Of a stretch of 11,722 bases of DNA, positions 2,955 to 11,721 are shown piece after piece; within the stretch, counting starts at the first letter, position 1; the number at the start of each line of letters is the position of its first letter. The notes beneath the pieces were generated by a model that had not been told where the DNA came from, searched no databases, and worked only from the letters and a program-made list of their open reading frames with translations. Origin of the DNA: Archangiaceae bacterium (GTDB lineage: Bacteria > Myxococcota > Myxococcia > Myxococcales > Myxococcaceae); contig JAYVCD010000278.1 of the NCBI GenBank assembly GCA_043750125.1, positions 1-11,722 on the forward strand. Reading direction: 5' to 3'. A program made the translations under genes and the position numbers.

Positions 2955-4034
2955 ATGAATCCGCCCAGCAATTGCAGCCCGACCGAAGTTCCAGCGACGG
3001 GGCCTTTCCACCTTGCGAGATCGGCAGCCACCGGGGGTTGAGGCGCCAAGCTCAGCCCGGGACGGCTGAGAGACATTCTGGCGGGGTTGCCGCGCAACAC
3101 GGATCCCAACCTCGTGGTGGGCACCGAGCATCCGGACGACGCGGCCGTCTTCCGGATGCCGGGGGGCGATCTGCTGGTGCAGACGGTGGATCTCATTTCC
3201 CCGATCGTCGACGACCCGGCCACCTTCGGAAAGATCGCGGCGGCAAACTCGATTTCAGACGTCTATGCGATGGGCGGAAGGCCTTTGACCGCGATGAACA
3301 TCGTCTGCTTCCCCACCAAAGAGCTGCCGTTGAGCGTGCTGCGTGAAGTCATCGACGGCGCGATGCTCGTCCTGGCCGAAGCCAGGTGTCTGCTGGTCGG
3401 AGGCCACACCGTCACTGATCCGGAATTCAAATTTGGGCTTTCGGTTTCCGGCGTCATCGAGGGTGGAGACATCTGGAGCATCGATCACGCCCGGGTCGGC
3501 GATGTCCTGATCCTCACCAAGCCCCTGGGCACCGGAGTGGTGAATCAGGCCCTGCGAAAGGGCAAGGTGAACGAGCATTCGATTGCGCACCAGCAGGCCG
3601 TGGCATCGATGATTTGTCTCAACGCCGCCGGGGCGCGCGCGGGCCGCATCGCCCACGCCAACGCAGCCACCGACATCACCGGGTTCGGGTTGCTGGGCCA
3701 CTGCGCCCAATTCGCACGGGCCTCTGGGGTCAGCTTCGAAATGCACCGGCAGTCGATCTTCTTCTTCGAGGGAATTCGGGACCTCGTCGAGTCGGGCATC
3801 ATTCCCGGGCGCGCGAAGGACAACGCGGACGCCTACAGGGCGATGGTCGCCGGGGTGGATTCCGAAGTGGAAGCGGCGCTGCTGTTCGACCCCCAGACCT
3901 CGGGTGGGCTGCTGCTTTCCGTGCCGGAAAAAAACGTTCAGCTGTTTTTCGACGCGCTCGAGGGCTGGACGCCAGGAGCGAAAGCGGTGGGCCGGGTCAT
4001 TCCCCGCGGGCCGCACGAAATCGTCGTTTGCTGA
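2955..4034 (+). CDS. selD: Selenide, water dikinase (selenophosphate synthetase) with selenocysteine at codon 29, 359 aa
   Basis: SD AGAAAGGTG, ATG at 2955, ...AATGG-TGA(3039-3041)-GAKLSPGRL... in frame with DDAAV, QTVD, PIVDDP, AANSISDVYAMGG, GGHT, LTKPLGTG, TDITGFGLLGH and DPQTSGGLL. The UGA sits at the Cys/Sec-x-x-Lys catalytic motif. Confidence 0.95.
3051..3070 (+). promoter_or_regulatory. Candidate bacterial SECIS hairpin
   Basis: CTCAGCC-CGGGAC-GGCTGAG: perfect 7-bp stem. The loop starts 16 nt after the UGA and has G at its second position. Confidence 0.75.
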
Positions 4035-4039
4035 TTCGC

Positions 4040-6499
4040 CTACTCGACTTTTTGACCGGGCTTCAGTCGTTGGTGGCCCTCGACCACGACGCGATCTCCG
4101 ACCTTCAGACCCTTGGTGACTTCCACCATGTTCGGTCCGACGGCCTGCACGGTGACCGGCACCGGGTCGGCCGTCCCATTCCTTGCGACCAGCCAAACCA
4201 GACCGCTGTCGAGCGCCGAGCGGGGAAGCATGATGCGCGAAGCGGCTGAGGCGTCGCTCTGGAACGTCGCTTTCACGCTCAAGCCCGGGCGCAGCAGGTC
4301 CGCGGGGTGCTTCAAATCGACTTTCACCATGACCGTGCCGCGGGCCTTATCGACCTGCTGCGAGATTTCTCGAACCGTCCCATCGAAGATTTTTCCCGGC
4401 ACGGCTTCGCTCTGAACCTGGACCACCTGTCCCATCTGAGCCATCGGGGCGTCGGCTTCATTTACGTCCAATTCGGCGACCAGGATCGTCAGGTCGGCCA
4501 CCTTGATCAGCGGCCGTGAGTCGCCAAAGGTGATCACCTCGCCGGGGTGAACCGAAACCTCGATGATCGTCCCGTCGATCGGAGAGCGAACTTTCGTCTG
4601 CTGCAACCGCTGTTCGATAAGCGACGTCTCGGCGGTGGCAATCTCGGCCTGCCCGATTGCGTTGTCCAGGTCGGCCTGGGTCGCCGCTTCGGCGTTGAAC
4701 AGCTGCTTGGTGCGGGCTCGATTGCGCTGGGCGGCGCGAAGCCTTGCGCGGGACAGATCGAGTTCGGCAATGGCTTGGGAATCCTCGAGCATGATCAGCA
4801 CCTGATTCCGGGTCACTTTCGCGCCGTTGGCAACCCGCACTTCCTTGATCCTCCCGGCCGTCGTGGCGCCGATCAGGATCATGTTGGGCGCGGACAAGAA
4901 TCCCGCGGCGACCAACGCCTGGCCATTGCGCGCATCAGCTCGAACCGCCTCGATCCGCAGGGCCGAAGGTTGGTCGGGCCGTGCCTCGACGGTTCCTTCC
5001 GGCCGCTTGACGAAAAACAGCGCGGCACCTGCGACGACGACGACCGCCAGCACCACCAGCCAGGGCAGTCGCGAGCCGCTTTTTTCCGGGTCCTCTTTGG
5101 ACAGTGAGAGGGACTCGAGCGCGCGAATCCGATCTGAGTCCGCGTCGCTGTGGCCCACGACCGGCAGGCTGGAAGGGGTGGAGCCTCGAGGCGGCCTGGG
5201 CTTGGCGGCCCGGGGAGCTGAAGAGGCGCGAGAAGGTTCCGGCTCGGGCACGGGGTTGCGCACACCGGGGAGCTCGTAATTCACCTGGGTGCGCTCCTCG
5301 GGAGAGGACTCATCCAGGTCCGGGTCATAGCCGGGGACGTCTTCCACTGCGCCGCGGGCCCGGGCCGGTAGGGCCGATAAGACCGACGAGACGGCTCGAG
5401 CCGGCGGGGGGGTAGGAACCGGAGGAAAAGTTCGGCCCGGCGGCGGAGTGGGAACCGGAGGAAGGGTCCGAGCCGGTGGGGGTGTCGGTGGAGGGTGGGT
5501 CTGGGCCTCGGGCGGCGAAGGGGCGGGAGGGACCGCTCGGTTTGGGGTGGCCGCCTGGACTCCCGTCACGCTTCGGGCAGCTGGAGCCGATGGAACCGGA
5601 GCTACGGGCCGGGCCGGTGCGGCCGCCTGGACCCCAGTGACGGTGCGTTCGGGCGGGGACCCTGTGGGGGCTGGGACCGCAGCGACGGCTCGGGCGGAAA
5701 CAGCCGCCTGGACCCCGGTGACGGTTCGGCCCGGTGGGGCCCACGAAGGCGAAGGGACCGGAGGGACACTGCGGGCCGATGCGGCCGCCTGGACCCCCGT
5801 GACGGTCCGGGCCGGTGGGGCGGAGGGCACGGGAGGAACAGCTCGAGGCGATGGCGCCGAGGGGACCGCAAGGAGGCTTCGACTCGATGGCGCCGATGGA
5901 GCGGGAGGGACGATTCGAGCCGACGCCGCTGAGGGAACCGCGGGGAGGCTTCGACCCGATGGCGCCGATGGAACGGGAACGGGGCTTCGAGCCGATGGCG
6001 CCGAAGGATCTGGAGGCAGCGGCCGAACCGAAGGGTCCGATAGGTCTGGAGGGGCGGGTCGGGCCGATGGGAGCGATCGGGCCGCCGAGGGGGCCGAGGG
6101 CACAGCAGACGCGGCCCGGGGCGCAGAGACGGCGGGGACCGGGGTCAGATCGTCTCGAGAAATCGTGGGCTGGTGAGCGACGGTGAGCTCGGGACCGAAG
6201 GGGTTGGCGTCCGCGACGGGCTCGAACGCCCCGAGGCTCGTCAACTTGCGCAGCACCTCTTCGACCATCTGAGTGCTTACCGGGGCTCCGTAATTCTGCG
6301 CAACTTCGAACAGCTCGGGGAACGTGCGGGTGCCATCGCAGGCGTGGGCCACCAGGGCGTCGAGCTTGCGCAAAGTGTGTTTGCGACCGCTCTTCAGGTC
6401 GGTCAGCCAGAACACAGTCGGATCGTTGGTTTTTTCGAGCTTGGTCCCAGCGGAGAGCCGCGGGCGCTCAACGGCCGGGGATGCACTCATTTCTTGCAT
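4040..6499 (-). CDS. Efflux periplasmic adaptor (membrane fusion protein) with N-terminal PqqD/RRE-like domain and Pro-rich repeat linker, 819 aa
   Basis: C-terminal ~320 aa: GRIKEVRVANGAKVTRNQVL, helical hairpin, VRSPIDGTI...PGE, LRPGLSV, GLKVGDRVVVEG. One TM segment at ~aa 478-497. N-terminal ~90 aa: RPRL...LTDLKSGRKHTL...CDGTRTFPEL...VEEVLRKLTSLGAFE. Start may be at 6490 instead. Confidence 0.9.
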   Translation of the reverse strand: MQEMSASPAVERPRLSAGTKLEKTNDPTVFWLTDLKSGRKHTLRKLDALVAHACDGTRTFPELFEVAQNYGAPVSTQMVEEVLRKLTSLGAFEPVADANPFGPELTVAHQPTISRDDLTPVPAVSAPRAASAVPSAPSAARSLPSARPAPPDLSDPSVRPLPPDPSAPSARSPVPVPSAPSGRSLPAVPSAASARIVPPAPSAPSSRSLLAVPSAPSPRAVPPVPSAPPARTVTGVQAAASARSVPPVPSPSWAPPGRTVTGVQAAVSARAVAAVPAPTGSPPERTVTGVQAAAPARPVAPVPSAPAARSVTGVQAATPNRAVPPAPSPPEAQTHPPPTPPPARTLPPVPTPPPGRTFPPVPTPPPARAVSSVLSALPARARGAVEDVPGYDPDLDESSPEERTQVNYELPGVRNPVPEPEPSRASSAPRAAKPRPPRGSTPSSLPVVGHSDADSDRIRALESLSLSKEDPEKSGSRLPWLVVLAVVVVAGAALFFVKRPEGTVEARPDQPSALRIEAVRADARNGQALVAAGFLSAPNMILIGATTAGRIKEVRVANGAKVTRNQVLIMLEDSQAIAELDLSRARLRAAQRNRARTKQLFNAEAATQADLDNAIGQAEIATAETSLIEQRLQQTKVRSPIDGTIIEVSVHPGEVITFGDSRPLIKVADLTILVAELDVNEADAPMAQMGQVVQVQSEAVPGKIFDGTVREISQQVDKARGTVMVKVDLKHPADLLRPGLSVKATFQSDASAASRIMLPRSALDSGLVWLVARNGTADPVPVTVQAVGPNMVEVTKGLKVGDRVVVEGHQRLKPGQKVE
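5385..6100 (-). repeat. Degenerate 36-nt (12-aa) coding tandem repeat in the MFP linker
   Basis: CGATGGCGCCGA-like units at 5849, 5885, 5921, 5957 and 5993 (36-nt period). GCCGCCTGGAC units at 5550, 5622, 5703 and 5784 (72/81/81 nt). Protein units PSAPSARSPVPV, R(T/S)VTGVQAA x4 and PTPPP(A/G)R x3. Boundaries approximate. Confidence 0.85.
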
Positions 6500-6504
6500 C
6501 GAGC

Positions 6505-7782
6505 TTATAGCTGAAGAGTCCCAATCGCGAAGAGCAGGCGATACGCCGCCAGCTCGCGATCAAAGTTCGAGATGAGCAACAGATTCTCGGCATTGGTAAG
6601 GGCAGACTGGGCCGTCGCAACCTCGAGAAAAGTCACCGTGCGAAGTTTGAACTGGGTAGTGACCAGCGCATAGTTTTCCTGCGCATCTTTGATCTGCAGC
6701 TCGGCCAGAGCGAACGAGCGCTTCGCAGTTTCCAGCTCGCTCAGGGCGCTGCGCAGTTGCTCGGCAATCTGCTTGACCAGCTGATGGGTCCGCAGCAGGG
6801 CCACCTCGGCGATCACCCGCTGCGCCTCGACTCGAAAGAACTCGTCTCCTCCCTGGAACAGCGGAAGCGTGAGCTGGGCGATTCCCTGGACCGTCAGCGG
6901 AAGCCCCTCGGAACTGGGTGGAATGGGGGGATTGCGGGGGTAGGCCTGGTCGTACCTGAAAAGCAGGTCCAGCCGGGGCCAGCGCAGACCTCCCAGCGAT
7001 TGCTCGAGGGCACGAGCGGCCGACGCCTGCTGTTGCAGCGCGCGCAGATCCTTTCGTTCTAAAGACGATGCGACCGCCTCGGCCAGACCGGGGAGCGCGG
7101 GCGTGACCGGCAGCGAAAGAGTCGCGGGCGGGCCGATGCCGACCAGACGCTCGAACTCGAGCTCCTGGATCTTCAGATCCTGACCGATTCGGACCCTGTC
7201 CACCTGGGCCTGACGAAAGCTGATCGTCGCCTGCAGCTGCGCGGTCCTCAAGGCGCCGCCGGCCTGGACGCGGGCGGTTGCGCTCGACACTTGCGCCTCG
7301 GCGCGCTGAACGGCGGCGTCTGCCACCAGGACCGCCTGTCTGCTGCGCAGCACCGCCACAAAGGCAGTGGTGACATCGAGCATCACCTGCTGGCGGGCGC
7401 GTTCGAGGAACAAGGTGGCCGCTTCGACTCCGAAGTGGGCCGCTTCCCGGCTGGCGAAGAAGCCCCTGCGGAAAATGGGCTGAAGCACTCTGCCTTCGGC
7501 CTGCAGCTGGGGCGACTGCACGAAGGGCGCCCGGTTCTGGACCAGGCCAAAACCCGTAATCGAAGCCTGGGGCGCGATCGCAACCCAGGTGGCGCGTCGG
7601 GTCACCTCGGCCTGCTCGATGTTCTGCTGAGCGATGCCGGTGTCTTCACTGCGATCGAGCGCCCGCTGGTAGGCGTCCTGGAGCGTGATCGCGGTGAGGG
7701 GGCCTTCGGCCTGGGCTGGTGCCGACCCGACGGCCGTCCAGAGCACCGCTGATGACAGGACAAGCTTCGCTTTGAAACGCAC
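6505..7782 (-). CDS. TolC-family outer membrane efflux protein, ~425 aa
   Basis: Signal-peptide-like start (GTG 7782) RFKAKLVLSSAVLWTAVGSAPAQA, then ITLQDAYQRAL, WPRLDL, LTLPLFQGG, AQENYALVTTQF...TFLEVATAQSAL and LLFAIG. Stop lies 5 nt before the MFP start. Start codon inferred. Confidence 0.9.
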   Translation of the reverse strand: MRFKAKLVLSSAVLWTAVGSAPAQAEGPLTAITLQDAYQRALDRSEDTGIAQQNIEQAEVTRRATWVAIAPQASITGFGLVQNRAPFVQSPQLQAEGRVLQPIFRRGFFASREAAHFGVEAATLFLERARQQVMLDVTTAFVAVLRSRQAVLVADAAVQRAEAQVSSATARVQAGGALRTAQLQATISFRQAQVDRVRIGQDLKIQELEFERLVGIGPPATLSLPVTPALPGLAEAVASSLERKDLRALQQQASAARALEQSLGGLRWPRLDLLFRYDQAYPRNPPIPPSSEGLPLTVQGIAQLTLPLFQGGDEFFRVEAQRVIAEVALLRTHQLVKQIAEQLRSALSELETAKRSFALAELQIKDAQENYALVTTQFKLRTVTFLEVATAQSALTNAENLLLISNFDRELAAYRLLFAIGTLQL

Positions 7783-7805
7783 AATCCCCAGGAAGCTGCG
7801 GTCTC

Positions 7806-8021
7806 TCAAGCGGCCAAGTATCGCGGAGGGCGTCTGGCGGTGCCAGGATTCGTCCGCCCCGACCCCGCTGCGGACCCCACATTGCGGCACCGAAGACACA
7901 GGATCTCGCCGTCGTCGGAATAAAGGCAATCTGCTCGCGCGACGAAGGTGCCGCAGCGCGAGCACGCAGCCACTTCAGTGGCCGCAGACAACGCCATCGG
8001 TGGCTCAGCTGACACCGCCAA
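7806..8021 (-). CDS. Small Cys-rich Zn-ribbon-like hypothetical protein, ~63-71 aa
   Basis: CSRCGTFVARADCLYSDDGEILCLRC (CxxC-x8-C-x9-CxxC). SD AAGGGAG 5 nt before TTG at 8021; alternative ATG at 7997. Ends 23 nt before the inferred TolC start. Confidence 0.55.
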   Translation of the reverse strand: MAVSAEPPMALSAATEVAACSRCGTFVARADCLYSDDGEILCLRCRNVGSAAGSGRTNPGTARRPPRYLAA

Positions 8022-8061
8022 GGTCACTCCCTTGTCCTTCTCCGTCGGCCGCTTCACGAAG

Positions 8062-8091
8062 CGATTCGGTGCTGCTCGCATCACCGAATCG
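8062..8091. repeat. Perfect 10-bp inverted repeat (hairpin or operator)
   Basis: CGATTCGGTG (8062-8071) / CACCGAATCG (8082-8091), 10-nt spacer. Confidence 0.6.
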
Positions 8092-8159: not shown

Positions 8160-8198
8160 CACGGGGCCGGTCAGTCCGACGACCGACCGAACCCCGTG
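8160..8198 (-). terminator. GC-rich hairpin downstream of tRNA-Lys (possible terminator or processing stem)
   Basis: CACGGGGTTCGGTCGGTC-GTCG-GACTGACCGGCCCCGTG, starting 22 nt after the tRNA 3' end. No clear U-tract. Confidence 0.4.
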
Positions 8199-8220: not shown

Positions 8221-8293
8221 TGAGAGCGGAGGGAATCGAACCCACAACCTATGGATTAAGAGTCCATTGCTCTGCCAATTGAGCTACGCTCCC
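8221..8293 (-). tRNA. tRNA-Lys (anticodon CUU)
   Basis: GGGAGCGTAGCTCAATTGGCAGAGC, anticodon arm ATGGA-CTCTTAA-TCCAT, GGTTCGATT, CGCTCTC+A. No encoded CCA. Confidence 0.96.
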
Positions 8294-8320: not shown

Positions 8321-8349
8321 TGTCTAAAGGATCACCTTGTGGGTGTCAA
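8321..8349 (-). promoter_or_regulatory. Putative sigma70 promoter of tRNA-Lys, overlapping the lgt 3' end
   Basis: TTGACA-17 nt-TAGACA followed by GC-rich discriminator CCGCGCGC. Confidence 0.65.
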
Positions 8350-9105
8350 CGAAGTCCGCGGGCCCCGCGCAATCAGCCAGACCCCGACCGCAAAAACCAG
8401 AATCACCGTGTACTGACCGGGCGTGAGGCCTGCGTACCTCCGGTCCACAAAGCTCAGATCCGAGGCGCGCAGAAAATCGAGGAAGAAGCGGGGCACCGTG
8501 TACAGCACCGCCAGCAAGCCCATCAACGTGCCGGGGCGGGGGTGAGTTCGTTTCACGAGGAAGAGGACGACCGCGATCGTCATCAGCACGAACATGTCGT
8601 AGAGCCCCAGGTCGTGGCGGGGGCCGCCGGGGAAGTCGACCGCGAGAAAGAAATCCGTTCGGACGCCCGGGTGGTCGTGGACCAGGAAGCAGCCGAAGCG
8701 TCCAATCGACCAACCCACCGACGTGCCCAGCGCCAATGGGTCGAGGTAGGGGGTGAGTGGAATCTTCTCTTTACGGAAGTAGATGAAGATTCCAACCAGG
8801 GCGCCCAGCACGCCGCCCATCGAAGACAGGCCGTCCCACACCCGCACCACGACCCAGACGCTCGTCAACAGCTCGGGGTGGTAGGCGAAGATGTGCATGA
8901 AGTGGCCGCCGATCAGGCCGAAGCCCACCGCCCACGGAACCACGTCGCGCAGCGGCTGATCGGTGACCTTCGCGTAGGTGCGGGCTTCTTTGGCTGCCAA
9001 CCAGGCGCCGATGAAGACAGCGATGGCAGCGACGACTCCGAAGACGTCAATCTTCTGCCCGAACGGAAGCTGCAGCGCGGGCAGGTCTAGATAGGGGATG
9101 GTCAC
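8332..9105 (-). CDS. lgt: Prolipoprotein diacylglyceryl transferase family protein (divergent), 257 aa
   Basis: Multi-TM; RVWDGLSSMGG, DPLALGTSVGWSIGRFGCF, RHDLGLYD, LYTVPRFFLDFLR and GLTPGQ correspond to the Lgt motifs. GTG start. Confidence 0.9.
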   Translation of the reverse strand: MTIPYLDLPALQLPFGQKIDVFGVVAAIAVFIGAWLAAKEARTYAKVTDQPLRDVVPWAVGFGLIGGHFMHIFAYHPELLTSVWVVVRVWDGLSSMGGVLGALVGIFIYFRKEKIPLTPYLDPLALGTSVGWSIGRFGCFLVHDHPGVRTDFFLAVDFPGGPRHDLGLYDMFVLMTIAVVLFLVKRTHPRPGTLMGLLAVLYTVPRFFLDFLRASDLSFVDRRYAGLTPGQYTVILVFAVGVWLIARGPRTSLTPTR

Positions 9106-9120
9106 GTGGAGCCGCGGACC

Positions 9121-9678
9121 TTAGCGTTGGGTGCGCAGGCCGATGCCTTCAATCGCGTCAGGCTTCGCAGCCGGGCCCACCAGCTGAAGCCACCCTTCGC
9201 GCATGTAGGCCGCCGTCCCCAGCACCACGATTCCGATCACCACCGCTGAGCCCACCCGAATCGGAAACCCGGGCGCCCCGGCAGTCGCGGCCAGGACGAG
9301 CGCAAACAGCAGCAGACTGCCCGCCTTTCCGTGCCATCGGTGCTCGACGCGAACGGCCCGGTGCCGCAGCCAGACGCAGAGCCACCCGATGGCGAGCAGC
9401 AGATCTCGCAACAACAGCGAGCCCCACAACCACAGCGGCAGCGCGGTGAACGCCGGCTCGGCGAGCCAGGCCAGAAATGTCACTGTGGCGACCTGCGCCA
9501 GCTTGTCGGCCACCGCATCGAGAGTGGCCCCCACGTTCGAGGTCAGATGGAAGCGGCGCGCGATCAGCCCATCGAGGACGTCCGAGGCGCCCAGGACGAT
9601 CAGCACCACCAGCAAGGGCAGCGGGTTGACCGCGCCCCGTTCCATTCCCTTCGCCCGCTCCTGGAAGGCGAGCACCAT
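9121..9678 (-). CDS. CDP-alcohol phosphatidyltransferase (PgsA-like), possibly N-terminally truncated
   Basis: Complete signature DVLDGLIARRFHLTSNVGATLDAVAD (DxxDGxxAR-x8-GxxxDxxxD), also LLLRD and WHGK. Similarity begins near ALVPVW (~9696). The ORF-track N-terminus is out-of-frame RND sequence. Confidence 0.85.
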   Translation of the reverse strand: MVLAFQERAKGMERGAVNPLPLLVVLIVLGASDVLDGLIARRFHLTSNVGATLDAVADKLAQVATVTFLAWLAEPAFTALPLWLWGSLLLRDLLLAIGWLCVWLRHRAVRVEHRWHGKAGSLLLFALVLAATAGAPGFPIRVGSAVVIGIVVLGTAAYMREGWLQLVGPAAKPDAIEGIGLRTQR

Positions 9679-9694
9679 CCACACCGGAACGAGG

Positions 9695-10098
9695 GCGCTT
9701 CTGAACCAGCACGTAGAGGGTGGGAATGAACAGCAGGTTGACCCCCGTGGAAACGAACATTCCGCCGAAGACCGAAGTGCCCAGCGAGTTGCGAGCGGCC
9801 GCACCCGCACCGCTGGCCAGGGCCAGAGGGACGACTCCGAGCAAGAAGGCGATCGAGGTCATCAGGATGAGACGCAATCTCGTCACTTGCTCGACAGGCC
9901 CACCAGCATCACCAGCCCAATCTGACAAAAGACGTCGTTGGGAAACCCGCGCAGCAGCTGCAACCCCAGCGCGCCGAGGATGGCCAGGGGCACCGAAAGA
10001 ATGACCACGAACGGAAGCGCGAAGCTCTCGTACTGGGCGGCGAGGACGAGGAAGACGAACAGCAGGCCGATGGCGAAGATCAGCTCCTCTCCGGCCTG
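9695..10098 (-). pseudogene. Remnant of an AcrB/HAE1-family RND efflux permease (C-terminal TM region only, internal deletion and frameshift)
   Basis: Frame [39 protein letters not shown]...[18 protein letters not shown]-stop (TGA 9883-9885). Frame B: TRLRLILMTSIAFLLGVVPLALASGAGAAARNSLGTSVFGGMFVSTGVNLLFIPTLYVLVQ. The usual NAILIVEFA... segment between them is missing. Confidence 0.9.
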
Positions 10099-10119: not shown

Positions 10120-10860
10120 TCAACAGTGCGCTCGGAGGGACTCGAACCCACGACCCTCGGCTTCGAAGGCCGATGCTCTATCCAGCTGAGCTACGAACGC
10201 GTCGGAAAAGGGCGACCTACCGGGCTTGAACCGGTAACCCCAGGATCCACAATCCTGTGCTCTGCCAGTTGAGCTAAGATCGCCATTACAATTTTGGCTG
10301 CAGCGAGGCGCTAGGTACCAACCGCGTCTGCTCCCGTCAACAACACACACAAACGTCTCCGCCGCTTTGGCGATTCGAAGCCAGGTAATTTCGGGGTGCT
10401 CGGCGATGTACTGCCGAAGCGTGAGGTCGATTTTCTTGCGCACCGGGCCCTTCAGCGGGCCCCAGCCGCCCAGCAAACCCGGGATTCCCAGCGCCTGCTT
10501 GGACCACTTCCAGAAGTCGAAGCGGTCGGTGTGCTTGAGGATCAGCCCGTCCTTGAACTCGAACGCGGCGTCGATGACGTTGTGGACCGGTCGCCCGTTG
10601 GCGGGGGACTTGTACTTCGCCTCCCAGTGCGCGCTGCCCGTCTGGTCGTCGGCGTGGACGTCGCAGAAGGTGCGGTCATTGGGGTCGGCCTTGCGCTGCC
10701 CAAGAAGCATCCACATCGCGCGGGCATCGAGGCCCTTGAGGGACGAAAACACCGGGTCCGAGAACGCGACGTCGGGGTGGTAGCAGGCCACCATTCCCTT
10801 CGGGTCCGAGTTCTTGAAGCAGGTGTAGAAGGTCTCGATCAGCTTCTCGTTGGGGTGCAT
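10120..10860 (-). CDS. SnoaL-like/NTF2-family protein (conserved part ~158 aa, 10387-10860) whose frame stays open through two tRNA genes
   Basis: MHPNEKLIETFYTCF...MVACYHPDVAFSDPVF...AMWML...GSAHWEAKY...GRPVHNVIDAAFEFKDGLILKHTDRFDFWKWSKQALG. SD GGAG before ATG 10860. First in-frame stop at 10120-10122. Confidence 0.85.
   Translation of the reverse strand: MHPNEKLIETFYTCFKNSDPKGMVACYHPDVAFSDPVFSSLKGLDARAMWMLLGQRKADPNDRTFCDVHADDQTGSAHWEAKYKSPANGRPVHNVIDAAFEFKDGLILKHTDRFDFWKWSKQALGIPGLLGGWGPLKGPVRKKIDLTLRQYIAEHPEITWLRIAKAAETFVCVVDGSRRGWYLAPRCSQNCNGDLSSTGRAQDCGSWGYRFKPGRSPFSDAFVAQLDRASAFEAEGRGFESLRAHC
10127..10200 (-). tRNA. tRNA-Arg (anticodon UCG)
   Basis: GCGTTCGTAGCTCAGCTGGATAGAGC, anticodon arm TCGGC-CTTCGAA-GCCGA, GGTTCGAGT, CGAGCGC+A. 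Confidence 0.95.
10211..10284 (-). tRNA. tRNA-His (anticodon GUG), including G-1
   Basis: G-1 plus GCGATCT/AGGTCGC+C73, anticodon arm CAGGA-TTGTGGA-TCCTG, T-arm ACCGG-TTCAAGC-CCGGT. Confidence 0.96.
10312..10340 (-). promoter_or_regulatory. Putative sigma70 promoter of tRNA-His/tRNA-Arg
   Basis: TTGACG-17 nt-TACCTA (preceded by TGG) and GC-rich GCGCCTCGC. Confidence 0.5.
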
Positions 10861-10904
10861 GGGCGCTCCGTTGGGAACGTCGGACCCTTGACCAGCCGCG
10901 CGTC

Positions 10905-11483
10905 TTATCGATCCAGGACGGAAGGGTTTGCCGGAAGGACCAGCCACTCTTCGGGGCATTGCGCCAGCTGCGGGTAATACTTGCCCGCGCTCTGGCAGTA
11001 GTAGTTGACCGGCGGCTCCTGAATCGGCTCGGCCACGACAGGCGCAGCCACCGGGTACGGGTAGACGGGGGTCGGGTACGAGTACCAGACGTCGTTGATC
11101 CCCCACCACCAACCCGCCTGACCCGCCCGCCAACCGTAGTACCAGGAACCACTTCGCCAGCCGGGAGTGCCGAACCGGATCACCCCCCCGGGGCCGCGGT
11201 AATAAGAGCGGGCATAGAAGCGCGGAAAATAAGCTGGAGCCCGAAAGTCGGGCCGGTAAACCGGCGCGGAAACGTGGAAGCCGCCCCCGTTGTAGCCGTA
11301 GCCGCCGCGATAGCTGCCGTGACCAAAACCACCGTAGCCGTGGGATGCGCTGCCGCCGTGCCAGCCCGATCCTCGCCCGTGGGACAATGCGATTGCAGGG
11401 ATGAGGGCCAGACAGGTGGCAAGAAGAATTGAAGTCCGTCGCAGCCGGCGACGCGAGTGAGCGGACGATTGAACTTCGATCAT
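10905..11483 (-). CDS. Putative secreted Gly/Tyr/Pro-rich protein with C-terminal YYC...YYP...CP motif, 192 aa
   Basis: SD GAGGT before ATG 11483; basic plus hydrophobic signal RRRLRRTSILLATCLALIPAIALS; GH/GY-rich tract; WWW...YPTPVYPYP; YYCQSAGKYYPQLAQCPEEWLVLP. Confidence 0.8.
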   Translation of the reverse strand: MIEVQSSAHSRRRLRRTSILLATCLALIPAIALSHGRGSGWHGGSASHGYGGFGHGSYRGGYGYNGGGFHVSAPVYRPDFRAPAYFPRFYARSYYRGPGGVIRFGTPGWRSGSWYYGWRAGQAGWWWGINDVWYSYPTPVYPYPVAAPVVAEPIQEPPVNYYCQSAGKYYPQLAQCPEEWLVLPANPSVLDR

Positions 11484-11647
11484 GGCGACCTCATCTGAGA
11501 ACACCTCTAATACCCTTCAACTCGAGGCGCAGCGACTGGCGAGGTGCGGGGCTGCTTATGGGTTCGAGGCGACCGCTTAATCCAGGGGAAGGACGCGGTC
11601 GTGCCCCGAGAGCACGGCCGACCCCACCGCGACCTCGTCCTACCAAG

Positions 11648-11721
11648 CGCGCCCGGCGGGACTCGAACCCACGACCCTCGGCTTAGAAGGCCGATGCTCT
11701 GTCCGGCTGAGCTACGGGCGC
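11648..11721 (-). tRNA. tRNA-Arg (anticodon UCU)
   Basis: Acceptor GCGCCCG/CGGGCGC+G, anticodon arm TCGGC-CTTCTAA-GCCGA, GGTTCGAGT. Confidence 0.95.

Follow-up and report, generated by a model that had tools for sequence, protein, structure and literature searches.

A predicted RRE-fold domain at the cytoplasmic end of a periplasmic pump adaptor encoded beside tolC in an Archangiaceae bacterium

We analysed a window of 11,722 nucleotides that makes up the entire contig JAYVCD010000278.1 (C278) of a metagenome-assembled genome (MAG) of an Archangiaceae bacterium (GCA_043750125.1; 6.17 Mb, 460 contigs, 89% complete). On its minus strand, directly after a TolC-family gene, lies an open reading frame (ORF) of 819 aa that encodes a periplasmic adaptor protein (PAP), also called a membrane fusion protein (MFP), with an unusual N-terminus. 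Residues from about 500 to 819 are a canonical periplasmic adaptor as found in tripartite pumps, with the four domains of the AcrA/MacA type, and residues 1-95 are predicted to adopt the fold of PqqD and of the recognition element (RRE) of peptides that are made on ribosomes and modified after translation (RiPPs). RREs are small winged-helix modules that bind short linear peptides by strand addition.

The adaptor gene and its domains

The gene, its parts and the two genes that adjoin it are the following (TM, transmembrane; GC3, G+C content at third codon positions).

4040-6499, minus strand: gene for the RRE-linker-TM-periplasmic adaptor (MFP/PAP), 819 aa, from ORF, translation, TIGR01730 and HlyD_D23
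6215-6499, minus strand: cytoplasmic PqqD/RRE-fold domain, aa 1-95, predicted from profile, AlphaFold2 (AF2), Foldseek and VIA; GC3 0.79
5132-6214, minus strand: disordered linker rich in Pro, Ala, Ser and Val, aa 96-456, from composition and tandem repeats
5096-5131, minus strand: cytoplasmic juxtamembrane motif R-I-R-A-L-E-S-L-S-L-S-K, aa 457-468, from the alignment of homologues
5009-5068, minus strand: single TM helix, aa 478-497; Kyte-Doolittle maximum 2.67 over aa 474-501
4043-5008, minus strand: periplasmic adaptor proper, with membrane-proximal, beta-barrel and lipoyl domains and a short alpha-hairpin
6505-7782, minus strand: TolC-family outer-membrane factor; longest ORF to 7965, likely start GTG 7782
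2955-4034, plus strand: selD, selenoprotein form (TIGR00476, E 3.6e-95), convergent and closing the unit at its 3' end

The adaptor scored 182.7 bits against TIGR01730 (RND_mfp; RND, resistance-nodulation-division), for which the cut-off is 94.9, with residues 531-818 aligned to model positions 17-319 of 322, and it matched HlyD_D23 with an E value of 1.1e-23. A phmmer search of the PDB returned the TriAB fusion 6vej (8.4e-23), MacA (7.2e-15), ZneB (5.2e-14) and AcrA (2.5e-11), and reached the haemolysin adaptor HlyD (8dck) only at 2e-4. Scores fell under the cut-offs of the HlyD model for type I secretion systems (T1SS), TIGR01843 (35.8 bits, cut-off 208.65), and of the MacA equivalog NF008606 (50.6 bits, cut-off 342). 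The AlphaFold model of the orthologue P0021, which shares 72% identity with the window protein in the adaptor part and 61% identity in the RRE, consisted of beta-rich domains and a short hairpin whose helices have 29 and 26 residues; its top Foldseek matches were AcrA, TMexC, MacA and MexA at about 1e-20.

The segment aa 474-501 is the sole strongly hydrophobic one in the 819-aa protein, which puts about 477 aa ahead of the TM helix; the P0021 model has a helix at the equivalent place. Because a single TM helix stands ahead of a canonical periplasmic adaptor, the N-terminal 477 residues must be cytoplasmic. A preliminary description of the locus had proposed this length, this single helix and the cytoplasmic N-terminus, and the analysis bears it out on all three.

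The same description had read aa 1-95 as a PqqD/RRE-like domain, and the profile and structure comparisons support this. A profile built from 25 sequences of the N-terminal domain family (profile A1) matched PqqD in the PDB (3g2b, E 1.3e-6; 5sxy, 1.5e-3) and the RRE-bearing enzyme PaaA (0.015), and the similarity to PqqD includes the N-terminal P-x-L-R and D-G-x-R/T motifs. The AF2 model of the domain, made from the 25-row alignment, reached a pLDDT of 76.7 overall and 82-90 over residues 21-90. It folds as beta3-alpha3, with strands at residues 19-23, 29-34 and 39-44 and helices at 45-53, 60-69 and 76-89; the full-length model of P0021, made independently, contains these elements too. Foldseek placed the lasso-peptide RRE TbiB1 with its leader (5v1u_B) first (E 2e-4, TMt 0.73), and its matches to an E value of about 0.02 were RREs: TbiB1, TruD, the cyanobactin heterocyclases 4v1t-4v1v, TigE, PqqD and lasso B1. 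VIA re-alignment gave a Z of 10.8 for lasso B1 6jx3_B, with an rmsd of 2.2 over 82 of 85 residues, and Z values of 10.5, 10.4 and 8.3 for TbiB1, TigE and PqqD, respectively. The predicted RRE/PqqD-like fold of aa 1-95 is thus well supported.

Sequence families gave less. Pfam and NCBIfam returned no significant match for aa 1-105; the domain matched the first 80 positions of the daptide protease model NF041824 weakly (E 0.12), homologues had weak NCBIfam matches to PqqD, PqqD_rel_X and the RRE end of the daptide protease, and the protein-atlas leads to PqqD and MftB clusters were all sub-0.9. Weak Pfam matches also pointed to other winged helix-turn-helix (wHTH) families, namely GMT-wHTH (0.19) and, in 8 of the 25 family members, PKMT_2nd. 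Since the RRE fold is itself a wHTH, these matches, together with VIA Z values of 5.7-6.9 for the listed DNA-binding winged helices of the Fur family and of response regulators, would also fit a DNA-binding domain tethered to the membrane, in which case the protein would be a one-component regulator like ToxR with an adaptor fused to it. In rickettsial PKMT methyltransferases, too, the C-terminal winged helices aligned with the domain, at Z 9.0-10.4. RREs, however, lie 3-4 Z units above the listed Fur-family and response-regulator domains, the profile similarity is specifically to PqqD, and the domain is not basic, having 12 K+R and 12 D+E when counted from the translation; we consider a DNA-binding role highly improbable.

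The linker between this domain and the membrane (aa 96-456) is composed of 25% P, 18% A, 13% S and 11% V, and its DNA contains tandem repeats with a period of 81 at 5622-5821 and of 36/72 at 5829-6008. The preliminary description saw in it a long flexible arm. This did not hold up: domain and TM helix lie about 383 aa apart in the window protein and about 70-120 aa apart in four homologues, and the excess consists of the 81-nt and 36/72-nt repeats. Because an orthologue as close as P0021 manages with about 90 aa, the tether of about 380 aa is best understood as a recent, lineage-specific repeat expansion rather than a designed arm. What appears to be conserved, judging from the alignment, is a flexible link of some length, not the ~380 aa, together with the juxtamembrane motif. 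The consensus of that motif is R-[IL]-x-A-L-x-S-L-[ST]-[LI], in which A, L, S and L are invariant in all five aligned sequences although the linkers themselves cannot be aligned. In P0021, residues 93-188, which include linker and motif, were modelled as coil with a pLDDT below 50 (5-row alignment), and this full-length model, weak because of its five rows, gave no sign of the motif docking on the RRE as an added strand.

A repetitive linker of atypical composition in a fragmented MAG could also mean that the adaptor really begins near the TM helix and that the 1.4 kb upstream are noncoding, a separate gene or a misassembled repeat. The frame, however, is open from a point only 5 nt beyond the stop of tolC, the GC3 of the domain is gene-like, and the same order is fused without a stop in the proteins P0021, P0006, P0008 and P0013 and in a homologue from genome G133. 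Contigs of 5233 nt from two runs cover 4040-8079, and with it the entire gene including the linker, with 0 differences, no indels and no joints. A third run tiles the same stretch without differences, and a second study yielded short identical pieces, all outside the linker. The three supporting runs are sediment metagenomes from one sediment study; run X5 leaves the linker uncovered, and no RNA run was among those listed with the stretch. So far as these contigs show, the expansion is not an assembly error, and an artefact is the least probable of the explanations that we weighed.

Homologues and spread of the fusion

A HMMER search of 1.84 billion representatives returned 15 proteins at E values up to 1e-3, nine of which carry HlyD-type domains, and the genomes of relatives supplied further ones. 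The closest homologues retain the N-terminal domain rather than beginning near the TM helix, so the RRE-linker-TM-MFP architecture, for which the preliminary description had suggested a search, does recur. Three matches, P0007, P0009 and P0010, are 98-111 aa long and represent stand-alone proteins or fragments. The metagenomic protein P0012 (1390 aa) was matched by the RRE query at seven distinct places, as would be expected if it contained many RRE-like repeats in a long array; its Pfam matches were all partial and spurious.

Within the class, profile A1 detected the domain at E values up to 1e-6 in 40 of 201 sampled genomes and 25 of 66 genera. Single genomes had as many as five matches, often in tandem; most of the ORFs concerned are 300-1000 aa long, and many of those scanned have HlyD-type matches. 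Many proteins of this wider family add TPR segments (seven of nine proteins) and match HlyD only weakly. The source genome has four copies of the domain, one on C278 and three elsewhere.

C239:9255-11126, C19:2054-3535 and C271:5539-7143: in-genome paralogues of the domain, two of them with weak HlyD matches

These paralogues adjoin two-component, amidohydrolase and SpoIID genes. C271 and a homologue in genome G012 (L104) have SpoIID and 5'-nucleotidase neighbours in common.

For 20 domain loci in 17 genomes we surveyed the genes within about 5.5 kb, with ORFs called crudely from GC3 and annotated by Pfam. The neighbours were varied; FHA-sigma54 activators adjoin three loci (L105, L108 and L116) and Ser/Thr kinases are frequent. 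A RiPP-like context was seen at two places only: at L014, a further locus outside the 20 (G020:C276, 3833-7078 and 7181-8797), an RRE-HlyD-like gene stands beside a LanB dehydratase, and at L109, one of the 20 (G177:C11, 5488-10135), such a gene stands beside ThiF and ATP-grasp. Overall, most domain-bearing relatives lie in neither pump nor RiPP neighbourhoods, which leaves room for a regulatory or scaffolding role.

Because the wider family sits in such signalling-like surroundings, this role is the principal rival to a function in export. The RRE-like domain would then bind some partner in the cytoplasm, for example a kinase substrate, a regulator or the tail of a transporter, instead of a cargo, and the protein would belong to a lineage-specific membrane family with one or two RRE-like repeats, often TPR, one TM helix and an HlyD-like periplasmic part that serves envelope signalling or assembly. 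The abundance and tandem arrangement of the domain, the TPR segments, the neighbours of the 20 loci, which are without a pump set, and those of the own-genome paralogues all agree with it. In contrast to the wider family with its weak HlyD matches, however, the window protein and its close homologues are full adaptors above a curated cut-off; the gene follows tolC after 5 nt here; and the strong structural matches are all peptide-binding RREs of RiPP pathways. On balance we regard a regulatory or scaffolding role as rather unlikely for the window protein.

When 401 genomes from across the phylum were searched with the adaptor part, the one close homologue to emerge was that of G133, which is 42% identical in the adaptor and 25% identical in the RRE (E 7e-7). 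Scans of the genome-contig collection and a metagenome scan with the RRE alignment yielded no relative. In the metagenome scan with the adaptor alignment, the 80 nearest relatives were plain adaptors of 28-35% identity, and none of their 80 loci matched the RRE profile, 58 of them reaching 600 nt or more upstream of the place that corresponds to the TM helix.

Neighbouring genes, candidate ligand and candidate pump

The G+C content of the window is 59-72%, and it contains 84 ORFs of at least 50 aa. On the minus strand, read from 5' to 3', a tRNA-Arg gene is followed by a SnoaL-domain ORF, tRNA-His and tRNA-Arg, a broken RND fragment, a CDP-alcohol phosphatidyltransferase gene, lgt, tRNA-Lys, a small Cys-rich ORF, the TolC-family gene and the 819-aa ORF. 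The features upstream of the TolC-family gene are the following.

7806-8021, minus strand: small CxxC...CxxC ORF, 71 aa if started at TTG and at most 118 aa if started at 8162; a doubtful gene
8221-8293, minus strand: tRNA-Lys(CTT), called by ARAGORN and Rfam (71.7 bits); separates lgt from the small ORF and sets a limit to any transcription unit
8332-9105, minus strand: lgt
9121-9810, minus strand: CDP-alcohol phosphatidyltransferase gene
9701-10086, minus strand: fragment of an RND transporter pseudogene covering the ~160 aa at the C-terminus, with a frameshift and a truncated 5' end, adjoining tRNA-Arg
10126-10283, minus strand: tRNA-His and tRNA-Arg
10120-11133, minus strand: SnoaL-domain ORF
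11647-11721, minus strand: tRNA-Arg

The TolC-family ORF has two repeats of the OEP family PF02321 (E 2.4e-34) and scores 89.7 bits against TIGR01844, under its cut-off of 225.15; a signal-peptide-like stretch directly follows the likely start GTG 7782. Its stop lies 5 nt before the adaptor ATG, and at the other end the stops of selD and the adaptor gene converge with 5 nt between them (4035-4039), as the preliminary description had noted. That description counted three closely spaced genes, the small Cys-rich ORF being the first; the adjacent pair of TolC and adaptor genes stands, and the small ORF does not stand with them. A consensus promoter scan found no promoter-like site; it gave two terminator-like sites only, both inside the TolC gene and not in excess of shuffled sequences.

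The small ORF ends 23 nt before tolC. Its GC3 is 0.66-0.69, against 0.77-0.83 in the neighbouring genes, which is a weak coding signal. There was no homologue of 39-125 aa in a collection of 5.8 billion proteins and no orthologue in 60 relatives, in which it matched, and weakly so, just the zinc ribbons that begin ORFs of about 300 aa; the family matches, to DUF7573 and PP0621, were weak as well. In a window with 84 ORFs of at least 50 aa, such an ORF is not beyond chance. From these sequence features it is doubtful that the ORF, as had been supposed, is a gene or encodes a ligand. Co-folding of the RRE alignment with the 71-aa product gave a score of 0.01 and a mark of 0.32 and is evidence for neither side.

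These results bear on the idea of a dedicated RiPP or bacteriocin exporter in which the RRE recognises the product of the small ORF. RREs bind precursor leaders, as the consulted part of PMC7470986 states, the gene order of small ORF, tolC and adaptor with gaps of 23 and 5 nt would suit such a system, and two relatives carry an RRE-HlyD-like gene beside RiPP-type enzymes (L014 and L109). Set against this are the weak coding statistics of the ORF, its lack of relatives in the collections searched and a contig without a tailoring enzyme. A CxxC-x(n)-CxxC zinc ribbon would, moreover, be a folded metal site and not a typical leader-core precursor. We therefore judge an exporter of this kind to be improbable.

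No intact RND, ABC (ATP-binding cassette) or MFS (major facilitator superfamily) gene is present across the whole of C278, which extends the earlier statement that the operon lacks a pump gene. To that statement has to be added the RND fragment upstream, which corresponds to ACR_tran positions 961-1021 (E 2.2e-20) and 865-931 (E 9.9e-19) in two frames. It is a pseudogene remnant and lies outside the TolC/adaptor unit.

Indications of a pump type came from related adaptors. Of the 80 plain-adaptor loci, 40 had a MacB/FtsX-like match, 23 an ABC ATPase and none an RND gene; among the 32 loci of at least 8 kb, 22 had MacB/FtsX and/or an ABC ATPase and 10 had neither. The FtsX matches in these loci were weak (36-51 bits). 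A tblastn search with the TolC of the window detected OEP in 0 of the 80 loci, a weak test given how divergent outer-membrane factors are. In the source genome, the nearest paralogue of the adaptor (on C235, 28% identity) is followed by ABC_tran and MacB_PCD genes. FtsX-type permease matches occur on 13 contigs, on only one of which (C138) there is a HlyD_3 match too, and BLASTP against the adaptors of the same genome did not separate RND from ABC types. According to the portion of PMC8277102 that was consulted, TM-anchored adaptors with sizeable cytoplasmic domains serve ABC, MFS and T1SS pumps, and the cytoplasmic regions of helix-anchored adaptors are essential for substrate recognition and assembly. 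Pump partners encoded in trans are plausible in this genome, and these comparisons suggest, with moderate confidence, that the partner would be an ABC transporter of the MacB/FtsX type.

Orphan permeases had been proposed as a place to look for it. At G000:C282:14968-18204 (L123) a MacB-type permease, an OEP gene and a second MacB-type permease follow one another until the contig stops, and neither an adaptor nor an ATPase was seen; this may be an adaptor-less pump, cut by the contig. No partner for the window protein is assignable in this assembly.

The remaining observations concern the rest of the contig. The RND fragment, which comes directly downstream of tRNA-Arg and tRNA-His, overlaps the phosphatidyltransferase gene at its start and is probably a rearrangement scar at the tRNA cluster. 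The SnoaL-domain ORF (10120-11133) overlaps the two tRNA genes at 10126-10283, so its 3' part is probably noncoding. About 70 nt of tRNA-Arg are repeated at 11646-11716 and on five other contigs. In selD, an in-frame TGA at 3039-3041 aligns with Cys17 of Escherichia coli SelD (3u0o) in a G-x-G-K motif; the listed ORF begins only at 3087 and misses the true N-terminus. At 916-2093 on the minus strand, two ORFs in overlapping frames each match one half of the YeeE/YedE sulfur-transport family (Sulf_transp and DUF6691), and their place near selD suggests a selenium or sulfur uptake pair.

A model for the fused adaptor

Our leading reading, which we put forward tentatively, is that the RRE-fold domain is a cytoplasmic peptide-binding module on the adaptor of a tripartite pump, that the pump itself is encoded elsewhere, and that the domain couples recognition to the conduit. 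In this model, the helix-anchored adaptor would pair with the TolC-family channel encoded directly before it. On the cytoplasmic side, the RRE domain would probably bind a peptide segment, be it a leader-like stretch of some peptide or protein that is exported or the tail of an inner-membrane transporter, and binding would couple cytoplasmic recognition to the assembly or gating of the adaptor-TolC conduit. For such coupling the cytoplasmic N-terminus of T1SS- and ABC-linked adaptors and the N-terminal RRE of the daptide site-2 protease may serve as analogies. A disordered linker of freely varying length would join the RRE to the membrane, and the energising transporter would most likely be an ABC transporter of the MacB/FtsX type encoded at another locus. 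A broader version, in which RREs have been recruited outside RiPP biosynthesis onto envelope adaptors and form a class-wide family that chooses cargo or senses peptides, with the adaptor as receptor and the pump in trans at this locus, seems to us rather doubtful.

Several results weigh against the proposal of a peptide-binding pump adaptor. At the level of the domain, the Pfam family PqqD (PF05402) did not match aa 1-105 at E values up to 10 and matched only 3 of the 25 family members at E values up to 1 (best 0.0025); the domain stays below the family threshold, and membership by Pfam's own criterion is not supported. For a ligand, the only candidate nearby is the product of the doubtful small ORF, and no RiPP tailoring-enzyme family was found among the scanned ORFs of the 11.7-kb contig. 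Among relatives, none of the 20 sampled loci has a canonical pump gene set beside the domain, an OEP gene is near it at one locus only (L107, about 4.5 kb away), and the neighbours of the G133 homologue include neither a TolC nor a pump gene. As for the pump, the best solved sequence relative is the RND adaptor TriAB, so that its type is unsettled, and with 460 contigs and 89% completeness the MAG does not allow a decision on whether it is encoded elsewhere. In the usual view, MacB-type pumps draw their substrates from the periplasm, with which the capture of a cytoplasmic cargo fits poorly.

The proposed receptor adaptor can be set beside four kinds of known system. With the RREs of PqqD, of the lasso B1 proteins TbiB1 and 6jx3, of TruD and 4v1t-4v1v, and of MccB it shares the beta3-alpha3 winged-helix fold (Z 10.8-8.3). 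Those RREs reside on or beside cytoplasmic tailoring enzymes in RiPP clusters, whereas the one described here is fused to a pump adaptor, with no credible precursor nearby. Closer in placement is DapP, the intramembrane site-2 protease of daptide pathways, which likewise carries an N-terminal RRE on a membrane protein and acts late in the handling of the peptide, as the consulted part of 10.1101/2023.03.08.531785 describes. DapP is a polytopic protease within a RiPP cluster; the window protein is a single-pass pump adaptor, and its match to NF041824 is far below threshold.

Among adaptors, those of the HlyD type in T1SS and of the MacA type in ABC pumps have in common with it an N-terminal TM anchor, a cytoplasmic extension and a TolC partner. 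Their N-termini, however, are short and of unknown structure, while that of the window protein is predicted to be a folded RRE on a linker of 380 aa, and its periplasmic part fails both the T1SS HlyD and the MacA equivalog models. AcrA, MexA, TriAB, ZneB and MacA share its four-domain architecture with a short hairpin, to which its score above the TIGR01730 cut-off corresponds. Unlike AcrA-like adaptors, it has a helix anchor instead of the typical lipid anchor, a cytoplasmic region of 477 aa and no adjacent inner-membrane pump.

In the literature searched we found no RRE or PqqD domain fused to HlyD or a membrane fusion protein, and no description of this architecture. The main texts of the two RRE-Finder papers (PMC7470986, PMC12710340) do not contain the words 'HlyD', 'efflux' or 'secretion'; their supplements, which hold lists of RRE families and were not covered, may bear on novelty. 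The portion consulted of the genome-mining paper PMC8939145 mentions no such fusion. Within that literature, two well-known modules are thus found in an undescribed combination and position that recurs in the lineage.

There is little structural knowledge of the cytoplasmic ends of helix-anchored adaptors even though they are relevant to substrate recognition, as the consulted portion of PMC8277102 points out. A folded, recognisable peptide-binding module at this end would make the idea of the adaptor as a receptor for cargo or signals directly testable. If the model is true, the RRE would mark not peptide tailoring alone but transport or signalling as well, which bears on genome-mining tools that flag any RRE as a RiPP cluster.

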